32,000 nucleotides of DNA. Source: Candidatus Saccharimonadota bacterium. GTDB lineage: Bacteria > Patescibacteriota > Gracilibacteria > UBA1369 > 2-02-FULL-48-14. A program made the translations under genes and the position numbers. Where the stretch lies: assembly GCA_016699145.1 (NCBI GenBank), contig CP064962.1, positions 120,001-152,000 of the forward strand, given 5' to 3'. Position 1 is the stretch's first letter; the number at the start of each line of letters is the position of its first letter. The notes under the pieces were generated by a model that saw nothing but the letters and a program-made list of their open reading frames with translations, searched no databases and was not told where the DNA came from. Below are positions 1,445 through 9,954 of this stretch, in pieces.

Positions 1445-1620
1445 AGGTTTCAGACCTCATTTTTGAATCTCGGGCTCGACCAACCTTCGCGAGTCTTCAA
1501 GAGGAGGAAGAACTCGGTGTTTTATCACGGGATAATCGTACCAAAGAGAGCTTAGTTTTGTAAAGAATTTATTACAAAATGCAATAAAAACGAGCTAAAA
1601 TAGATAATTTGTGTGAATAC

Positions 1621-1648
1621 TTGACTTTTAAGTAGATCGAAGTATCAT
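1621..1648 (+). promoter_or_regulatory. Putative sigma70-type promoter of the island-1 cassette
   Basis: TTGACT (1621-1626), a 16-nt spacer, then TATCAT (1643-1648). This lies only 4 nt upstream of ATG 1653, so the transcript would be leaderless or near-leaderless, or the real start is ATG 1677. Confidence 0.35.
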
Positions 1649-1652
1649 GTAG

Positions 1653-2369
1653 ATGAATCGCCTTAACCACTCGCTCATGAAGGATTTTATTACCAAGCTT
1701 CGCAAGTCTGCAGGACTTTCTCAAGAAGAGCTTGCTCAAAAATTAGGGTTTTCGCGACCCACTCTTGTTGCGATAGAGAAGGGTGAAAGAGACGTCACTC
1801 TCAATGAACTCAAACAAATATCGGAAATTTTCGACATTCCGCTTGAGATAATTCTGGATCAGGAAATGGAAGTAACTCAAAAAATAGAGGCGCAAAACTT
1901 TAGTGAAAAAACTTTTATTAAGTTTCAGAATCTTATTCTTCAATGTATTAAATATGGAGCTGATACTGATGGGAAAATTACAAAAACTAAACTGGCAAAA
2001 CTAGTATATCTATGTGATTTTGCGAACTATTACAAAACTTTAAAACCAATTTCTGGATTTGAATACCGTAGATTCGCCAGAGGACCTGTAGCAATTGAAT
2101 TTTTTGATATTATCGATAACGATGAATCTCTTAGTGCTGAGAAAAATGGCACTGCAGTAATGGTCTCTTTAGTGGAACAACCAGATGACACTGTTCTTAA
2201 TAAAGAAGAATTAGAACTTATTAAAGCTGTCTGCAAAAAATGGAAAAAGGCTACCACTCAACAGATTGTAGATTTCACTCATAAACAAATGCCTTGGGCT
2301 ATGTGTAAAGATAGGGAAGTCATTCCGTATCAACTCATCAATAACGAAGCTCCAGAGAATGTTTATTAA
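1653..2369 (+). CDS. XRE-family HTH fused to a Panacea (DUF4065, SocA/GepA-like) domain; putative PanA-type antitoxin/regulator
   Basis: The N-terminus (LRKSAGLSQEELAQKLGFSRPTLVAIEKGERDVTLNELKQISEIF) is a Cro/C1-type HTH. The C-terminus (KTKLAKLVYLCDF...ISGFEYRRFARGPV ... LNKEELELIKAVCKKW...TTQQIVDFTHKQMPW) fits the DUF4065/Panacea pattern. Confidence 0.75.
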   Translation: MNRLNHSLMKDFITKLRKSAGLSQEELAQKLGFSRPTLVAIEKGERDVTLNELKQISEIFDIPLEIILDQEMEVTQKIEAQNFSEKTFIKFQNLILQCIKYGADTDGKITKTKLAKLVYLCDFANYYKTLKPISGFEYRRFARGPVAIEFFDIIDNDESLSAEKNGTAVMVSLVEQPDDTVLNKEELELIKAVCKKWKKATTQQIVDFTHKQMPWAMCKDREVIPYQLINNEAPENVY

Positions 2370-2772
2370 AGATTTATCCTATCAAATTGAATTTTCTTCA
2401 TACTGCGAAAGACATTTCTGTAAAGATTTTCTAAAAAAATATAAAACACGTCAGTGGCTTGAAACGAGGAAAACTATTATAGCTACCTTAGAACGTGCCT
2501 ATGCTTTTCAAAATACTGGGCTAATTGATAATTTAAAATTCTCCCAAGAAGATGGGGTAGGAATCTTCAAACTTGATTTTAGAGTTGCTGGAACAAACTT
2601 TTCTCCAAAAACATCAGGAAATCGGGTGATTTTTTCTCTTTCCATTAATGCGGTAAAAATTAAAGTTTTACTCGTCTACGGTAAGGATCACTGCGATAAA
2701 AAACATTCAGAGACGCAGTGGATATTGGAGCAAATTAAAGCAAATTTCCCTGAATACCGAAAATATTGTTAA
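2359..2772 (+). CDS. Small toxin-like protein (137 aa), translationally coupled to the Panacea-domain gene
   Basis: ATG 2359 overlaps the upstream stop by 11 nt. A helical N-terminus is followed by strand-like GIFKLDFRV...SGNRVIFSL...KIKVLLVYGKDH, a pattern-level resemblance to RelE/ParE-fold toxins. Function is unverified. Confidence 0.5.
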   Translation: MFIKDLSYQIEFSSYCERHFCKDFLKKYKTRQWLETRKTIIATLERAYAFQNTGLIDNLKFSQEDGVGIFKLDFRVAGTNFSPKTSGNRVIFSLSINAVKIKVLLVYGKDHCDKKHSETQWILEQIKANFPEYRKYC

Positions 2773-2805
2773 TTATAGTGTAAATAACTTACCGTCTCCA
2801 TCTAT

Positions 2806-3444
2806 ATGGTAAAAAATCATAAAAGAACATCAACCGATAGTTTTTTTGAAACTCATGTACTAGAGTCGGTCATGGAAAACTTGATACAAAAGGGTTACCC
2901 TCCAGAAACATTATCTACATGTTGGAATCAAGATGGTTATATTTTTGATTTAGCAGTGGTGGATAATACAACCAATGAATTAATAGCTGTAATTGAGACT
3001 CAAATTCAAAACCCTATTATAGCGACCAGCACTAACTTAAGAGATAGTCTGAAAAAATATTCAGAAATAGCTCGACTCAGTAAGGTTATTCTTTTTATTG
3101 TTAGTCTTTCTAATTCAACACTTAAATTTTCTCAATTTGTACCCGATAAAGAAGATAATGAAAAGGGAACTTTCGTACCTATAGATTCACTGCCTTCTTT
3201 TGAGGTTCTTAGAGAGAAAATTTTAGGCATAAAGAGGAAAGAAACTAGAGACCAAATAAGGAACATTTGTAGCCTTTTATTCGTACTGACGCTGCTAGTC
3301 TTATTAGCTGATTTTTTTAATTATATCGAGGTCAGCTTCGAAAGATTAACACTCCTGGGTGCCTTGGCCGTATTTGCGCTAGTCCCCCATGCTAATAAAC
3401 TTAAAATATTGAACATAGAGTTTGAGAGAAAGAAGTCAGAGTAG
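2806..3444 (+). CDS. Membrane-anchored protein with an N-terminal HsdR_N-like (PD-(D/E)xK-fold) domain
   Basis: KGYPPETL...GYIFDLAVVDNTTNELIAVIETQ resembles the type I restriction enzyme R N-terminal domain (D...E-x-K core, here E-T-Q). Two C-terminal hydrophobic helices are present (ICSLLFVLTLLVLLADFF and LTLLGALAVFALV). Same strand, 33 nt after the toxin-like ORF. Confidence 0.55.
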   Translation: MVKNHKRTSTDSFFETHVLESVMENLIQKGYPPETLSTCWNQDGYIFDLAVVDNTTNELIAVIETQIQNPIIATSTNLRDSLKKYSEIARLSKVILFIVSLSNSTLKFSQFVPDKEDNEKGTFVPIDSLPSFEVLREKILGIKRKETRDQIRNICSLLFVLTLLVLLADFFNYIEVSFERLTLLGALAVFALVPHANKLKILNIEFERKKSE

Positions 3445-3504
3445 TTTCAGCTTGCCCCTCCCGTCATCCTTCCCTAAAATAAAACTACCCCTAACTCATC
3501 CCCG

Positions 3505-6374: not shown

Positions 6375-6635
6375 ATGGCTGATTCAACAGGTATAAAACT
6401 AGGCGATACGGTACAAAACGACACAGAAGAAATTGGGAGAGCATTAGGAGTAATAGAAATTCAGAAAGGTGCGATTAGGCAAAAAGATGAGGAGCAAAAA
6501 GCGGCTCGAGCTGCCCATGTTGAGCGAATAAATCAAGTCACAGTTCTTCCAACAGAATTTTCAAATTTCGATGCGTTTAAAGCATATCTTGAAGGAATGA
6601 ACCTCCCCGAGCTTACGCTCGGGGTTTCAGCCTAG
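6375..6635 (+). CDS. Hypothetical protein (86 aa) whose 3' end runs into the IS200-like element
   Basis: Low-GC ORF. The last ~10 codons (NLPELTLGVSA*) are encoded by the terminal hairpin of the IS, so the reading frame is probably truncated or fused by the insertion. Confidence 0.4.
   Translation: MADSTGIKLGDTVQNDTEEIGRALGVIEIQKGAIRQKDEEQKAARAAHVERINQVTVLPTEFSNFDAFKAYLEGMNLPELTLGVSA
6605..6624. repeat. IS200-like end hairpin (right end relative to tnpA)
   Basis: Perfect 8-bp stem CCCCGAGC/GCTCGGGG with a TTAC loop. Confidence 0.8.
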
Positions 6636-7060
6636 TTCAAGCTGCGCTTGGCCCGCATCTTCTTCGCCCTGTTGTTGGATATACTTTCGAATGACCTCCT
6701 CGTTAATCCCAACTGTGGAGGCAAAGTAACCTGCCGACCAAATACTTCTCGTCCCCAGTCCACTTTTCTAAGAAACGGAAACTTTATGTTCAACTCACGA
6801 GCTGTGTTGGCTTTTATTATTCTCACCACCTCTCCCACTGCTATTTGTGGAGGTATGGAAATTAAAATATGTACATGGTCTAAATCCGTGTTTACCTCTT
6901 TCACCACCAGTTCCGGATAGTACTTCGGAATATCCTTCATCACTTCCTGCAGAAAAGCCAACACACCTTCGTTGAATATCTTCCGACGGTATTTGGTCGG
7001 CCAAACTAAGTGATAGTCACAGATGAAAACTGCGTGTGAGCTTTTTCGTAGCTTCTTCAT
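6627..7060 (-). CDS. tnpA: IS200/IS605-family transposase TnpA (Y1/HUH), interrupted by a 1-nt frameshift near 6746-6747
   Basis: The N-terminal frame gives HLVWPTKYRRKIF...DLDHVHILISIPP (HUH motif). After ...KVDWGRE the canonical C-terminus SIWSAGYFASTVGINEEVIRKYIQQQGEEDAGQAQLELG* is found only in the -1 frame (stop at 6629-6627). The track ORF 6632..7060 ends in out-of-frame sequence. Confidence 0.8.
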
Positions 7061-7105
7061 GCCTCCACTTTACACCACCACGAAGATGCGGGCACCCACT
7101 ACATC

Positions 7106-7125
7106 CCTCGGGCTTACGCCCGGGG
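7106..7125. repeat. IS200-like end hairpin (left end relative to tnpA)
   Basis: 8-bp stem CCTCGGGC/GCCCGGGG with one G-T wobble and a TTAC loop. It is a homologue of the 6605-6624 hairpin. Confidence 0.8.
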
Positions 7126-7260
7126 AACTACGTCAGTTGATTAGATGTCGATCGAGGGCTCTTATATTTTAGAGAAGGATACATTTATGCGAATGGAGAG
7201 GAAAAACTGGCTCACGTAGATGCAAAAAGCGGGAAGATTTCCATCTATAACCTTTTAGCA

Positions 7261-8394
7261 TTGGGAGCTAACCAAGCTCAAAAAAAGTTCCTATCGAATC
7301 TAGCAATGATAGCAGGATTGCCCCTATATCAAAGATATGAGGATCATATTATTTACGAAATAGATACTGACCTCTCCCAAAACCTAGAGGACACACTTGC
7401 ATGCATACTTCTTCGCCATCGAACTCAATTTGATGCAGCCGTAGCAGGATGGACGGGAAAAGACAAAAGAGAAGAAGAGGATTTAGCAGAAGTATATCCA
7501 AGCGCAAATGCATTATTACGTAAATTCAACATTCCTAAGGGTGAATTAACTGAAGCACCAAATGGTGATCTGCAAATACCTCCTCTATCTGAAGAAGAAT
7601 TCCAAAAGATCTTTAGATCTAGCACCAGATCCAAAACTGCTCCAATTGTTTTTGCAAAAAAAGTCGCGCGAGGGTACCAACTCAGTCCATTGACAGATAT
7701 GGGGGAGTCTCTATCTCTGAGCGATACCAGGCGCTCCGAATTAATAAAATTGATGAGAAAGAGATTTGAAGAAAGAACAGAAGAGAGCTACAAAGATATG
7801 TTAAACAATCTAGGAATACAGACCTTAGAGGAGGACCTTGAAAAGGACCCTTCACTTAAAGCAGATTTTCTACATTACATCTCGATAGTTTTTGGTCCGA
7901 AAGAGTCACCCATTGCTCCAAACCCACAAGAGCCCTTTACCGTAGCCTTGCTTAGACTGAATGAAAAGGCATTTCTAGAAGAAATCTTCGTGCCAACCAT
8001 AAAATACAAAAGAGGGGAAGGGAAGATGGAATTGCCCTATAAGGGGATAGCATATGAAGAAAAACCATTTGGGGAAAATGGTAGCCTTACTACAGTAAAT
8101 ACTCAAAAAACATGTGGACAATTTACTGGATTGGAAGAATCGGAAAAAATTGAAAATGCTAAAAAAGCTGCTGAAGATGAAAATATAAAAATCAAATATG
8201 CTTTTAAAGAAGATTTCTTGATGTTTAGACTCTTCGTTAAAGCAGTTTCCGATCAAGAAAGAGAAGATTTACGCAGAGCAATTTTCATAAAAGAACTTGA
8301 TTCTAGCATCAGGAGAGGCTCCTATTCCATGTCAAAGGCTTTTGATGATATTAAAGAACTAGGAGCTGTTAACATAAATAGAGGAGTGGTGTAG
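7261..8394 (+). CDS. Hypothetical protein, N-terminal fragment of a large orphan gene split by an IS5-family insertion at 8361/8362
   Basis: Low-GC ORF with a TTG start (first ATG at ~7306). The last 11 codons (GAVNINRGVV*) are encoded by the IS left end. The host reading frame resumes at 9208. Confidence 0.6.
   Translation: MGANQAQKKFLSNLAMIAGLPLYQRYEDHIIYEIDTDLSQNLEDTLACILLRHRTQFDAAVAGWTGKDKREEEDLAEVYPSANALLRKFNIPKGELTEAPNGDLQIPPLSEEEFQKIFRSSTRSKTAPIVFAKKVARGYQLSPLTDMGESLSLSDTRRSELIKLMRKRFEERTEESYKDMLNNLGIQTLEEDLEKDPSLKADFLHYISIVFGPKESPIAPNPQEPFTVALLRLNEKAFLEEIFVPTIKYKRGEGKMELPYKGIAYEEKPFGENGSLTTVNTQKTCGQFTGLEESEKIENAKKAAEDENIKIKYAFKEDFLMFRLFVKAVSDQEREDLRRAIFIKELDSSIRRGSYSMSKAFDDIKELGAVNINRGVV
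8362..8377. repeat. IS5-family left terminal inverted repeat
   Basis: GGAGCTGTTAACATAA is the exact reverse complement of 9190-9205. Confidence 0.9.
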
Positions 8395-8420
8395 AGTGAA
8401 GTTACTCTAACCCTAACGCC

Positions 8421-9198
8421 ATGTACCAGATGCTAACGGATGAACAGTTCAAACTGATCCAGCCTTATTTTCCAAAGCCCAGAAAGCCTGAAAAGATTCC
8501 ACTGAAACGTTGCATGGATGCCATTTGTTATGTACTTAAAACAGGGTGCGCATGGAGACAAATGCCCTACGATTACAGAGAAAAAGAGAATGACTGGCAC
8601 ACGATTTATACAAGATACAAACGGTGGAGCGAATCTGGACTTTTTGGACAAATGCTTAGAGCACTTGAAGTAGCAGATGTACTTCAAGTGCGAATAGCTT
8701 TCCTGGACAGTACAACAAATAGAGCGCACCACAGTGCAGCGGGAGCCATGAAAAAAAGGGGCCACAAGCGTTAGGCCGAAGTAGAGGTGGGTACACTACA
8801 AAAATTCACATGATTGCTGGAGATCCAGATCATGGGATGCACTTTGTTTTAACAGGTGGTGAAGTGAGCGATGTGAAAGTTGGAAAACAAATTTTGAGAG
8901 ATTATTCGTTTCCAAAAACAGTAGATCATTTGGCTATGGACAAAGGTTATTCATGCTACAAAGTTCTGGAGCTGTGCGAAGAAAAAGGCATAACTCAGTC
9001 GTTCCTCCAAAGGCAAAAATGAAATTTCCGTGGGAATACAACAAGAACATTTATGCCTACCGCAACGAGATTGAACGCCTATTTCACCGAATGAAAAATT
9101 ACAGAAGAATTTCAACTCGCTATGACAAATTAGACCTGATGTATGCCTCCTTTATCTCCCTCTGCCTTGTGGCACTTTTACTCAAAGTCTTATGTTAA
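8421..9198 (+). CDS. IS5-family transposase OrfAB: expected programmed -1 frameshift at the A7G run plus a second, unexpected 1-nt frameshift near 8992
   Basis: OrfA: LTDEQFKLIQPYFP...CYVLKTGCAWRQMP...WHTIYTRYKRWSESGLF. The -1 frame after the A7 run reads KKGPQALGRSRGGYTTKIHMIAGD...AMDKGYS...EEKGI. The remainder (NSVVPPKAK...YRNEIERLFHRMKNYRRISTRYDKL) is in yet another frame (track ORFs 8421, 8810 and 8953). Confidence 0.85.
8751..8758 (+). promoter_or_regulatory. Programmed -1 ribosomal frameshift motif (A AAA AAA G) of the IS5-family transposase
   Basis: The A7 run followed by G lies exactly where the OrfA frame and the GRSRGG-containing OrfB frame overlap. Confidence 0.7.
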
Positions 9199-9205
9199 CA
9201 GCTCC
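9190..9205. repeat. IS5-family right terminal inverted repeat
   Basis: TTATGTTAACAGCTCC is the exact reverse complement of 8362-8377. It contains the transposase stop codon. Confidence 0.9.
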
Positions 9206-9207
9206 TA

Positions 9208-9954
9208 AAGCCAGAAGAATTAGAGGAAGTCCTACAATTGGCAGAAGTAGAGATGGAAGCGACTGAAAAAGAAAATCTTGAAGCGGTTTTAAATCAAAAC
9301 GAAAAGCTTAAATTAATCTCTGCTTTAGATGCAATACGCAGGATTAGATTACTAAATCAGCCAGATCGATCAATAAGAGCAATGTCCCTTAGTCGGGATA
9401 TATTGGCTTATATTGAGAAACAGGATCAATCAATTAAAGAGAAGCAAACTAGGTTGGATGCTTTTCAGGTTAGACTTACTGAATACAATCAAAAGTTAGA
9501 ACAGCTCAGCCCCGCTCAACAGAAAGAATTGGGTACTTTAGAGGCGGAAGCCTTAGATTGTGCTATGAGCGAAACGCGTCTAGGGGACGCTTTATTACAG
9601 GAGTTCCGAGGTTCTTCTCCTCACCCAATTTTTGGGTCTGCTAGCTTTCCATACCAATTACTGCACTTTAGTAAGGTTGAATTTCAAGGTTACTTTGTTT
9701 CTCATCCAAACCAAGATTTAACTACTGAACATCTCGAGACTATTGCTCGATGTGAAGCATTGAGAAAAGAAACAATGGATACCCAAGCCTCGATTCAGGA
9801 AAAACTCGTTGAATGGGTGGGGCCAAGACCAAACTCTCCTGATGGAAGTTTGGCAGGAACTATTGAACTTCAAAAAAGAAATGTGGAGTTTGCTTTGGCG
9901 AATAATAGAATCCCAGACTACAAGGATCAGAAAGATTGGAAAATATCATGGTAG
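9208..9954 (+). CDS. Hypothetical protein, C-terminal fragment of the IS-disrupted orphan gene
   Basis: The frame is open from the IS right end (KPEELEEVLQLAEVEMEATEK...), the same frame (1) as 7261..8361. The track ORF starts at internal codon 9238. Coiled-coil-like, with no recognisable domain. Confidence 0.6.
   Translation, partial: KPEELEEVLQLAEVEMEATEKENLEAVLNQNEKLKLISALDAIRRIRLLNQPDRSIRAMSLSRDILAYIEKQDQSIKEKQTRLDAFQVRLTEYNQKLEQLSPAQQKELGTLEAEALDCAMSETRLGDALLQEFRGSSPHPIFGSASFPYQLLHFSKVEFQGYFVSHPNQDLTTEHLETIARCEALRKETMDTQASIQEKLVEWVGPRPNSPDGSLAGTIELQKRNVEFALANNRIPDYKDQKDWKISW

Follow-up and report, generated by a model that had tools for sequence, protein, structure and literature searches.

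The 32,000-nucleotide stretch analyzed here, referred to as the window, corresponds to positions 120,001 to 152,000 of contig CP064962.1 (assembly GCA_016699145.1) and contains, between mpg and purC, a low-GC island of about 1.9 kb (1545-3450, no strand assigned). The island is composite, made up of a predicted PanAT toxin-antitoxin (TA) cassette and one further gene, and its three open reading frames (ORFs) are all encoded on the + strand: gene 1 (panA, 1677-2369, 230 amino acids), coding for a candidate HTH_3 plus Panacea antitoxin and putative autorepressor; gene 2 (panT, 2359-2772, 137 amino acids), coding for a toxin candidate with a predicted RelE/HigB-like fold; and gene 3 (2806-3444, 212 amino acids), coding for a predicted membrane-anchored protein of HsdR_N-like PD-(D/E)xK fold. 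Genes 1 and 2 overlap by 11 nt (2359-2369) and genes 2 and 3 are separated by 33 nt (2773-2805). Across positions 1800-3300 the GC content is 0.32-0.34, as compared with 0.51-0.63 in mpg (left flank, PF02245, E-value 3e-54) and 0.51-0.56 in purC (right flank, PF01259, 7e-67), and the sequence flanking the island has values of about 0.47-0.53. The PanAT module (0.344) and gene 3 (0.340) were also calculated separately, and the lowest-GC bin of the whole window is 2001-3000. ORF coordinates, GC content and flanks bear out a preliminary description of this DNA, made from the letters alone, which had reported a low-GC island of about 2 kb with three co-oriented genes, and the positions of the ORFs confirm the overlap and the gap that were claimed there.

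The product of gene 1 matches both the helix-turn-helix (HTH) family HTH_3 (PF01381, 4.7e-15) and the SocA_Panacea family (PF13274, 1.6e-17, residues 114-215 of a 238-residue form), the latter with 64.9 bits at a gathering cut-off of 25.7 bits. The proposal that gene 1 joins an HTH to a DUF4065/Panacea domain therefore holds, as both matches lie above threshold. The 238-residue form results from an in-frame ATG at 1653 which abuts the promoter, was previously taken as the start and adds 8 residues that are not conserved. Homologues of gene 1 have 230-231 amino acids and align from residue 1 of the 230-residue form (MKDFI...), and exactly this shorter product, encoded in a Candidatus Peregrinibacteria genome, is deposited at NCBI as QQR55076.1, a 'DUF4065 domain-containing protein'. 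Because the homologues and QQR55076.1 begin there, translation of gene 1 most likely starts at ATG 1677, 28 nt past the -10 hexamer, and the start at 1653 is probably wrong.

For gene 2, searches against Pfam, NCBIfam and PADLOC gave no match, and its sole sequence match was to the phage family phrog_5869 of unknown function (E 1e-4). There are 138 homologues of about 137 amino acids with roughly 60-82% identity; the hosts of the close homologues are almost all Peregrinibacteria, Peribacteria or Gracilibacteria, and Saccharibacteria carry remoter relatives (30-41% identity). An AlphaFold (AF2) model built on the family alignment (pLDDT 92.6, pTM 0.87) displays one strand, two helices, four strands and then C-terminal helices. 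When this model was compared with the PDB using Foldseek, the top 45 matches were all RelE, HigB, HigB2, PfiT, YoeB, YafQ, ParE or Cami1, the last being a RelE-family ribosome-bound effector. The best match was the archaeal RelE 1wmi_A (E 2.4e-4, probability 1.00, TM 0.76 when normalized to the target), and ParE ranked well below RelE and HigB. A RelE-type fold for gene 2 is thus supported at the level of the predicted structure. Polar residues conserved among 57 family members, in an alignment that takes in the Saccharibacteria branch, are K22, K26, D57, K71, D73, K84, N88, R89, K109, K114 and E118. A parallel can be drawn by eye between FKLDFR...SGNRVIF...VYGKDH of gene 2 and YKIKLR...SGYRLVY...SVGKRE of RelE, in which the SGNR/SGYR segment is also paired by hhalign, without significance, and the conserved Lys/Arg residues of gene 2 would be placed near K52, R61 and K80/R81 of RelE by this motif-level alignment only. 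The preliminary description had recognized a RelE/ParE-like pattern of strands and no motif that could be named, and the model, the Foldseek matches and the blank Pfam scan of family members mentioned below agree with it on both points.

The distribution of the gene 1-gene 2 pair was surveyed in one genome per species, which yielded 44 gene 2 loci at which gene 1 and gene 3 were sought by tblastn. A full-length gene 1 homologue was located immediately upstream of gene 2 in about 40 of the 44 loci, and the hosts are bacteria of the candidate phyla radiation (CPR), namely Peregrinibacteria/Gracilibacteria and, more distantly, Saccharibacteria. The exceptions are two loci in which gene 1 is inverted (L041 and L046), one with a fragment of gene 2 (L045) and one with a C-terminal trace of gene 1 (L048). 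In L041 and L046 the panA homologue is divergent from the toxin gene, as opposed to the overlapping arrangement found elsewhere. The 11-nt overlap ATGTTTATTAA recurs unchanged in 29 other loci (30 with the window), whereas in 11 loci of the Saccharibacteria type the two genes overlap by 11-32 nt and at one locus they lie 5 nt apart. Identities to gene 1 and gene 2 drop in parallel, from 83/80% to about 36/30%. Three homologue neighborhoods show gene 2 preceded by an HTH-Panacea gene that overlaps it to the same extent; the pair is followed by a type I restriction-modification (R-M) operon in one of them, by nothing in another and by a convergent Mur ligase gene in the third. Throughout the survey the immediate neighbors of the pair are heterogeneous and mostly housekeeping genes (amino-acid kinase, UvrD/AddA-like helicase, SecA, TilS, IlvD, PPDK, DnaK, DnaB, UbiA, racemase), with the occasional presence of Zeta toxin, DUF2779, DUF2130 or a second PanA and, at some loci, of R-M or MNT-like genes. 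No neighbor family recurs beside the pair across lineages, and the GC content of the module is below that of its flanks in most loci. The conserved pair, its shifting neighbors and the low GC content of the module together indicate an autonomous, mobile two-gene cassette. An association with defense islands was considered as a general rule and was rejected, as most of the neighbors are housekeeping genes.

Two of the orthologous loci deserve separate mention. In Peregrinibacteria GW2011_GWC2_39_14 (L030), a second HTH-Panacea gene (240 amino acids, 29% identity to gene 1) lies directly downstream of the orthologous pair at 6545-7601 and overlaps a 116-residue ORF that has no Pfam match and a RelE-like C-terminal pattern, suggesting tandem PanAT modules; the gene 2 copy of this locus stops prematurely. 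In the closest metagenomic relative (P0002, JGI 3300075153; also L001; 82% identity), the pair is located immediately upstream of hsdR-hsdM-hsdS, which make up a complete type I R-M operon, and the N-terminus of this HsdR is HSDR_N, the same type of domain as in gene 3, which may be a coincidence or a hint of recombination at the junction.

Upstream of gene 1, the best promoter-like site on the + strand is the sigma-70-type promoter TTGACT-N16-TATCAT (1621-1648; score 10/12), assigned to the panAT operon. Since promoter-like sites are no commoner in this region than in shuffled sequences, support for this promoter comes from orthology and not from the scan. Alignment, across the orthologous loci, of the 170 nt that precede the conserved start codon showed a TTGACw-N16-18-TAnnnT element ending 22-32 nt before the ATG in most of them, the distance in the window being 28 nt. 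Farther upstream lies a distal operator-like inverted repeat, TTTTGTAA-N8-TTACAAAA (1556-1579, no strand assigned), in which TTGTAA-N8-TTACAA is exact at 1558-1577 and the arms extend to 8 nt. It occurs only once in the window, the chance expectation being 0.02 matches, and it represents the window copy of a conserved distal element, TGT(C/A)AA-N7-8-TTACAAAA, whose left half is TGTCAA in most loci. The distal TTACAAA starts 49-50 nt upstream of the -35 hexamer in 15 of 32 non-redundant loci, one of which is the window (49 nt), and in a shuffle control (200 shuffles) no distance rose above 1. A proximal element abuts the -35 hexamer, with the family consensus (T)GTAAAA-N4-5-TTGACA and the degenerate window copy TTTGTGTGAATAC (1608-1620, no strand assigned), so that the -35 hexamer itself serves as a half-site. 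The distal TGTCAA...TTTACA and the proximal TGTAAA...TTGACA mirror each other at a distance of about four helical turns, and two such mirrored elements would be the layout to expect if an autorepressor of the Xre type had its operators here. The inverted repeat at 1558-1577 and the TTGACT-N16-TATCAT promoter, proposed earlier as the regulatory region, therefore both correspond to cis-elements that are conserved in orthologous loci. A further inverted repeat lies over, or starts in, the -10 hexamer of many orthologous loci (GATTAGAAT-N8-ATTCTAATC; L026, L028, L033, L034, L036, L043, L044 and L005); the window has a weak version only, ATCATGTAGATGAA. This repeat may act as a third operator or form a hairpin in the 5' leader.

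PanAT systems were defined by Kurata et al. (2022; PMC8832971), who described 343 PanAs that carry an HTH; most pairs are antitoxin-first, the toxins include ParE, MqsR, Doc and toxSAS, and PanA and PanT form complexes with each other, the pairs acting as type II TAs. In the part of their Dataset S1 that was examined, the toxins of cluster T14 are HigB-2/YoeB/ParE/RelE-like according to HHpred and occur together with HTH-PanAs in Ca. Saccharimonas aalborgensis, a TM7 genome (overlap -11), Cryosericum, Flexibacter and Pedobacter, and in methanogens with PanAs that have no N-terminal domain; the T14 entries there include WP_015641600.1 and WP_129619247.1 and are all marked 'notest' (PMC8832971). 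The examined part of the dataset turned up no entries from Peregrinibacteria, Gracilibacteria or Patescibacteria. The cassette resembles PanAT/T14 in its PF13274 antitoxin with N-terminal HTH, the antitoxin-first order, the short overlap, the RelE/HigB-2-like toxin and the CPR hosts; T14 and gene 2 are likened by description (fold, partner and overlap) and not by sequence, an exact-match look-up of Saccharibacteria relatives having given no WP accessions, and they differ in that the gene 2 family has no Pfam model and derives mostly from metagenome-assembled genomes of Peregrinibacteria/Gracilibacteria. The cassette thus fits the known PanAT kind, in which HTH-PanA was already predicted to occur with HigB-like toxins. 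The earlier suggestion of a new PanT toxin family claims too much: no Pfam model covers the family, but the combination of HTH-PanA with HigB-2/RelE-like toxins is already catalogued as T14. With RelBE, HigBA and YoeB-YefM, gene 2 shares a predicted beta-alpha-alpha start that leads into an antiparallel sheet and ends in a C-terminal helix, as well as basic residues kept on the sheet and a bicistronic, putatively autoregulated operon. It differs from them in lacking sequence-profile similarity, in its length (137 versus 85-120 amino acids), in an extra strand and two C-terminal helices, and in its antitoxin, which is Panacea and not RelB, HigA or YefM.

We consider it probable that the island has at its core a bicistronic PanAT cassette of type II, self-contained and horizontally mobile, whose RelE-like toxin probably inhibits translation. 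The promoter at 1621-1648 would drive panA and panT together, and the 11-nt overlap, which is part of the observed architecture, would couple their translation so that antitoxin and toxin are made together. The N-terminal Xre-type HTH of PanA would most likely bind the conserved TGT(A/C)AA...TT(T/G)ACA repeats, which lie beside and across the -35 hexamer, and repress its own operon. The Panacea domain, the only other folded part of PanA, is expected from published PanAT work to bind PanT and to neutralize it directly; according to Ernits et al. (2023; PMC10440598), standalone Panacea neutralizes directly and in multidomain PanAs the extra domains do so. When PanA is lost or inactivated, PanT would most likely arrest growth by cleavage of mRNA on the ribosome.

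Several observations weigh against this interpretation. What ties gene 2 to RelE is its predicted fold, for which the Foldseek E-values are modest (2e-4 to 1e-2); 46 family members scanned singly against Pfam at E<=1 matched no toxin family, a profile search of PDB sequences with gene 2 gave nothing relevant, and hhalign of gene 2 with E. coli RelE was non-significant (probability 0.3). H111 is not kept in the Saccharibacteria branch, which makes the catalytic set uncertain. Toxicity and neutralization are predicted for the gene 2 family, and the possibly equivalent T14 carries the mark 'notest'. In the HTH-containing PanA of B. fungorum, HTH-Panacea alone did not neutralize the toxin (PMC10440598). 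The proximal element in the window is degenerate, matches the consensus only in part and is therefore weakly supported here. Finally, no terminator was found between gene 2 and gene 3, and gene 3 may be co-transcribed with the pair in this genome.

The predicted fold cannot tell an mRNase from a ParE-like gyrase poison, and mRNase chemistry for gene 2 is inferred. Gene 2 might be a ParE-like DNA gyrase poison and not an mRNA interferase, in a cassette that would otherwise be the same PanAT module. The RelE fold is common to ParE, ParE (6xrw) is among the Foldseek matches with E 3-4e-2, CDD identified ParE domains among PanT toxins (PMC8832971), and there is no His/Tyr acid-base pair conserved across the whole gene 2 family. 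However, RelE, HigB, HigB2 and YoeB are all well ahead of ParE in the Foldseek ranking, conserved Lys/Arg residues occupy RelE-like motif positions, and most of the validated PanTs inhibit translation or disrupt membranes (PMC8832971), so that a gyrase poison seems to us unlikely, although it deserves more credit than the readings discussed below that give the pair or gene 3 another role. We give similarly small weight to the speculation that gene 2 founds a sequence-orphan, CPR-restricted branch of RelE/HigB, whose target or chemistry may differ from canonical A-site mRNA cleavage; within the RelE/HigB fold, gene 2 is marked by extra secondary-structure elements and by a conserved polar set of its own. 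The PanA-PanT pair could have been co-opted in episymbiotic CPR bacteria, for instance in phage defense or to support dormancy, whether the cells are attached to their host or free of it. In a separate speculation of equally small weight, the gene 3 family might represent a single-gene nuclease or sensor associated with the membrane that has so far not been described.

It is also conceivable that the pair is no addiction-type TA but a domesticated regulatory or sensor pair, or that it acts like the type VI system SocAB, with PanA handing the toxin over to a protease and not sequestering it. Conservation of the pair across CPR lineages is unusually high, with 60-83% identity among Peregrinibacteria-type genomes, and a sensory role for Panacea has been proposed by Ernits et al. 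(2023; PMC10440598). Gene 1 also has a weak match to the SocA equivalog NF047745 (3.9e-5), but the score of 23.4 bits is far below the cut-off of 190, and gene 2 has no similarity to SocB and is predicted to adopt a RelE-like and not a SocB fold. The variable positions of the pair and a module GC content below that of the flanks speak for mobility and not for vertical housekeeping inheritance, and copies that are degenerate or rearranged (the fragment in L045, the inversions in L041 and L046 and the truncation in L030) likewise argue against a domesticated function. In addition, tested PanATs form direct complexes (PMC8832971). We regard a regulatory or SocAB-like role as improbable, clearly more so than a gyrase poison, and retain the type II PanAT cassette as the preferred interpretation.

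The third ORF of the island, gene 3, gave no Pfam match at E<=1 for the protein of the window, PF13588 and PF04313 included. It appeared to be an ORFan when a word-indexed search found only the protein itself, and this was overturned by an exhaustive HMMER search, which returned 184 relatives at E<=1e-3, mostly full-length and of about 205-225 amino acids. Among 40 of these relatives, PF13588 (HSDR_N_2) was matched by 13 (best 2.9e-7), PDDEXK_9 by 10 and PF04313 (HSDR_N) by 4, and one relative carries the NCBI name 'HsdR N-terminal domain-containing protein'. The model of gene 3 (AF2, pLDDT 81.9) has an alpha-beta-beta-beta-alpha-beta core, a long helix leading into a first transmembrane (TM) helix, a second TM helix and a terminal beta-hairpin, and the hydrophobic segments are located at about 150-175 and 180-195. 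Foldseek matches were Hjc resolvases, the BpuSI nuclease domain, the REase-like 3ijm, SPARDA and RecU, with E-values of about 1e-3 and probabilities up to 1.00. The family alignment reads GYP...D48...D53...E64-x-K66, followed by two hydrophobic helices and the C-terminal PFAxKLKILGxEFER. The earlier assignment of an HsdR_N-like PD-(D/E)xK fold with two C-terminal TM helices is thus upheld at the level of fold and family. The catalytic motif is incomplete in gene 3, where D48 and E64 are present and the motif lysine is replaced by Gln66; at this position Lys is found in 30 of the 40 relatives and Gln in 1 of 40, which is gene 3 itself. The family tail after the second TM helix is almost invariant (P194, K198, K200, E205, E207 and R208) and forms, in gene 3, a predicted beta-hairpin without known counterpart. 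A few longer relatives (368-550 amino acids) share the N-terminal domain only. With the HsdR_N/PD-(D/E)xK nucleases (PF13588 and PF04313; Hjc, BpuSI), gene 3 has in common, within its N-terminal 130 residues, the core with D48 and E64; it differs from them as a standalone protein with two TM helices and a conserved tail and with no helicase or methylase partner.

The closest relative of gene 3 (44% identity) is encoded on a contig of 31% GC, and the five relatives that were examined are solitary, without PanA or gene 2, in contexts which comprise HATPase_c/DUF4325, VapBC and transposases, AAA_13, or ribosomal genes. At the pair loci, tblastn revealed no gene 3 homologue in any of the 44 species loci or in 7 further contigs with the pair (51 in total). 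Co-localization of all three genes in other genomes, on which the preliminary description had made its proposal depend, is accordingly found for gene 1 and gene 2 and fails for gene 3. Since its relatives are solitary and it is absent from all pair loci, gene 3 is, judged by these comparisons, an independent passenger of the low-GC patch and not a TA component: a separate single-gene element whose PD-(D/E)xK/HsdR_N-like domain would be anchored in the membrane by two helices. Three co-oriented small genes, with a RelE/ParE-fold toxin and an HTH protein among the products, likewise make up the three-component TA systems (paaR-paaA-parE; toxin-antitoxin-chaperone), but the third gene of those systems is conserved and functionally linked, whereas gene 3 adjoins the pair in this genome only. 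The idea, raised in the preliminary description, that genes 1-3 form a tripartite TA or abortive-infection module, in which the nuclease-fold protein tethered to the membrane would act as the effector or the sensor, could draw on the common orientation, the 33-nt spacing and shared low GC (0.34) of the genes, the missing terminator after gene 2, the HSDR_N-bearing hsdR directly downstream of one relative's pair and the accessory third genes known in some PanAT loci (PMC8832971), but in view of the solitary relatives, the 51 pair loci without gene 3, the non-conserved neighbors of the pair, the absence of the motif lysine and the rarity of accessory third genes, which occur in small fractions of genomes only and are not general to toxicity or neutralization (Kurata et al., 2022; PMC8832971), it is the least probable of the readings considered and very unlikely.

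Around the island, no direct repeats or att-like sites were found. An empty-site comparison was attempted by a metagenome scan with Mpg, in which all relatives had at most 64% identity (top match 62%) and neither purC nor any of genes 1-3 was present near them. As no Mpg relative with purC nearby was obtained, the insertion boundaries are not fixed by comparison. To the left of the island, in host sequence at the end of mpg, lies a strong terminator-like hairpin with a 14-bp stem (1262-1295, no strand assigned), and directly in front of it a 45-residue ORF, MSTAKTFLIGRNALTGRLVPVEKARGNPEKYVVERMPKSGNGDTK, is encoded on the - strand at 1307-1444, convergent with mpg. This ORF has no family match and is not conserved beside other PanAT copies; it was therefore rejected as a part of the module and may be a real small host gene. 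Neither Rfam families nor tRNAs were found in the window. Just downstream of purC-purB, a second stretch of lower GC content (0.39-0.42) holds an IS200-like Y1 transposase (6632-7060, - strand; PF01797, 2.7e-22) followed by two ORFs (377 and 238 amino acids; region 7261-9954) without Pfam match, and this combination of a transposase and ORFs unmatched in Pfam in a lower-GC stretch points to a second variable region in the window.

As the pairing of HTH-PanA with HigB-like toxins had been predicted, the general understanding of TA systems is unchanged by this analysis, and its main practical value is one of annotation, namely a corrected start codon for panA, a fold for the toxin and the separation of gene 3 from the module. 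The membrane-tethered HsdR_N-like family of gene 3 may merit a study of its own. The conserved layout of promoter and repeats, taken together with the 11-nt overlap, provides a testable model of autoregulation and translational coupling. For the PanAT family, the repertoire is extended to Peregrinibacteria and Gracilibacteria with a well-delimited, CPR-restricted toxin family of predicted RelE fold that escapes every curated profile searched, and for the small genomes of CPR bacteria, in which very few accessory modules of such kind have been characterized, a further one is described.

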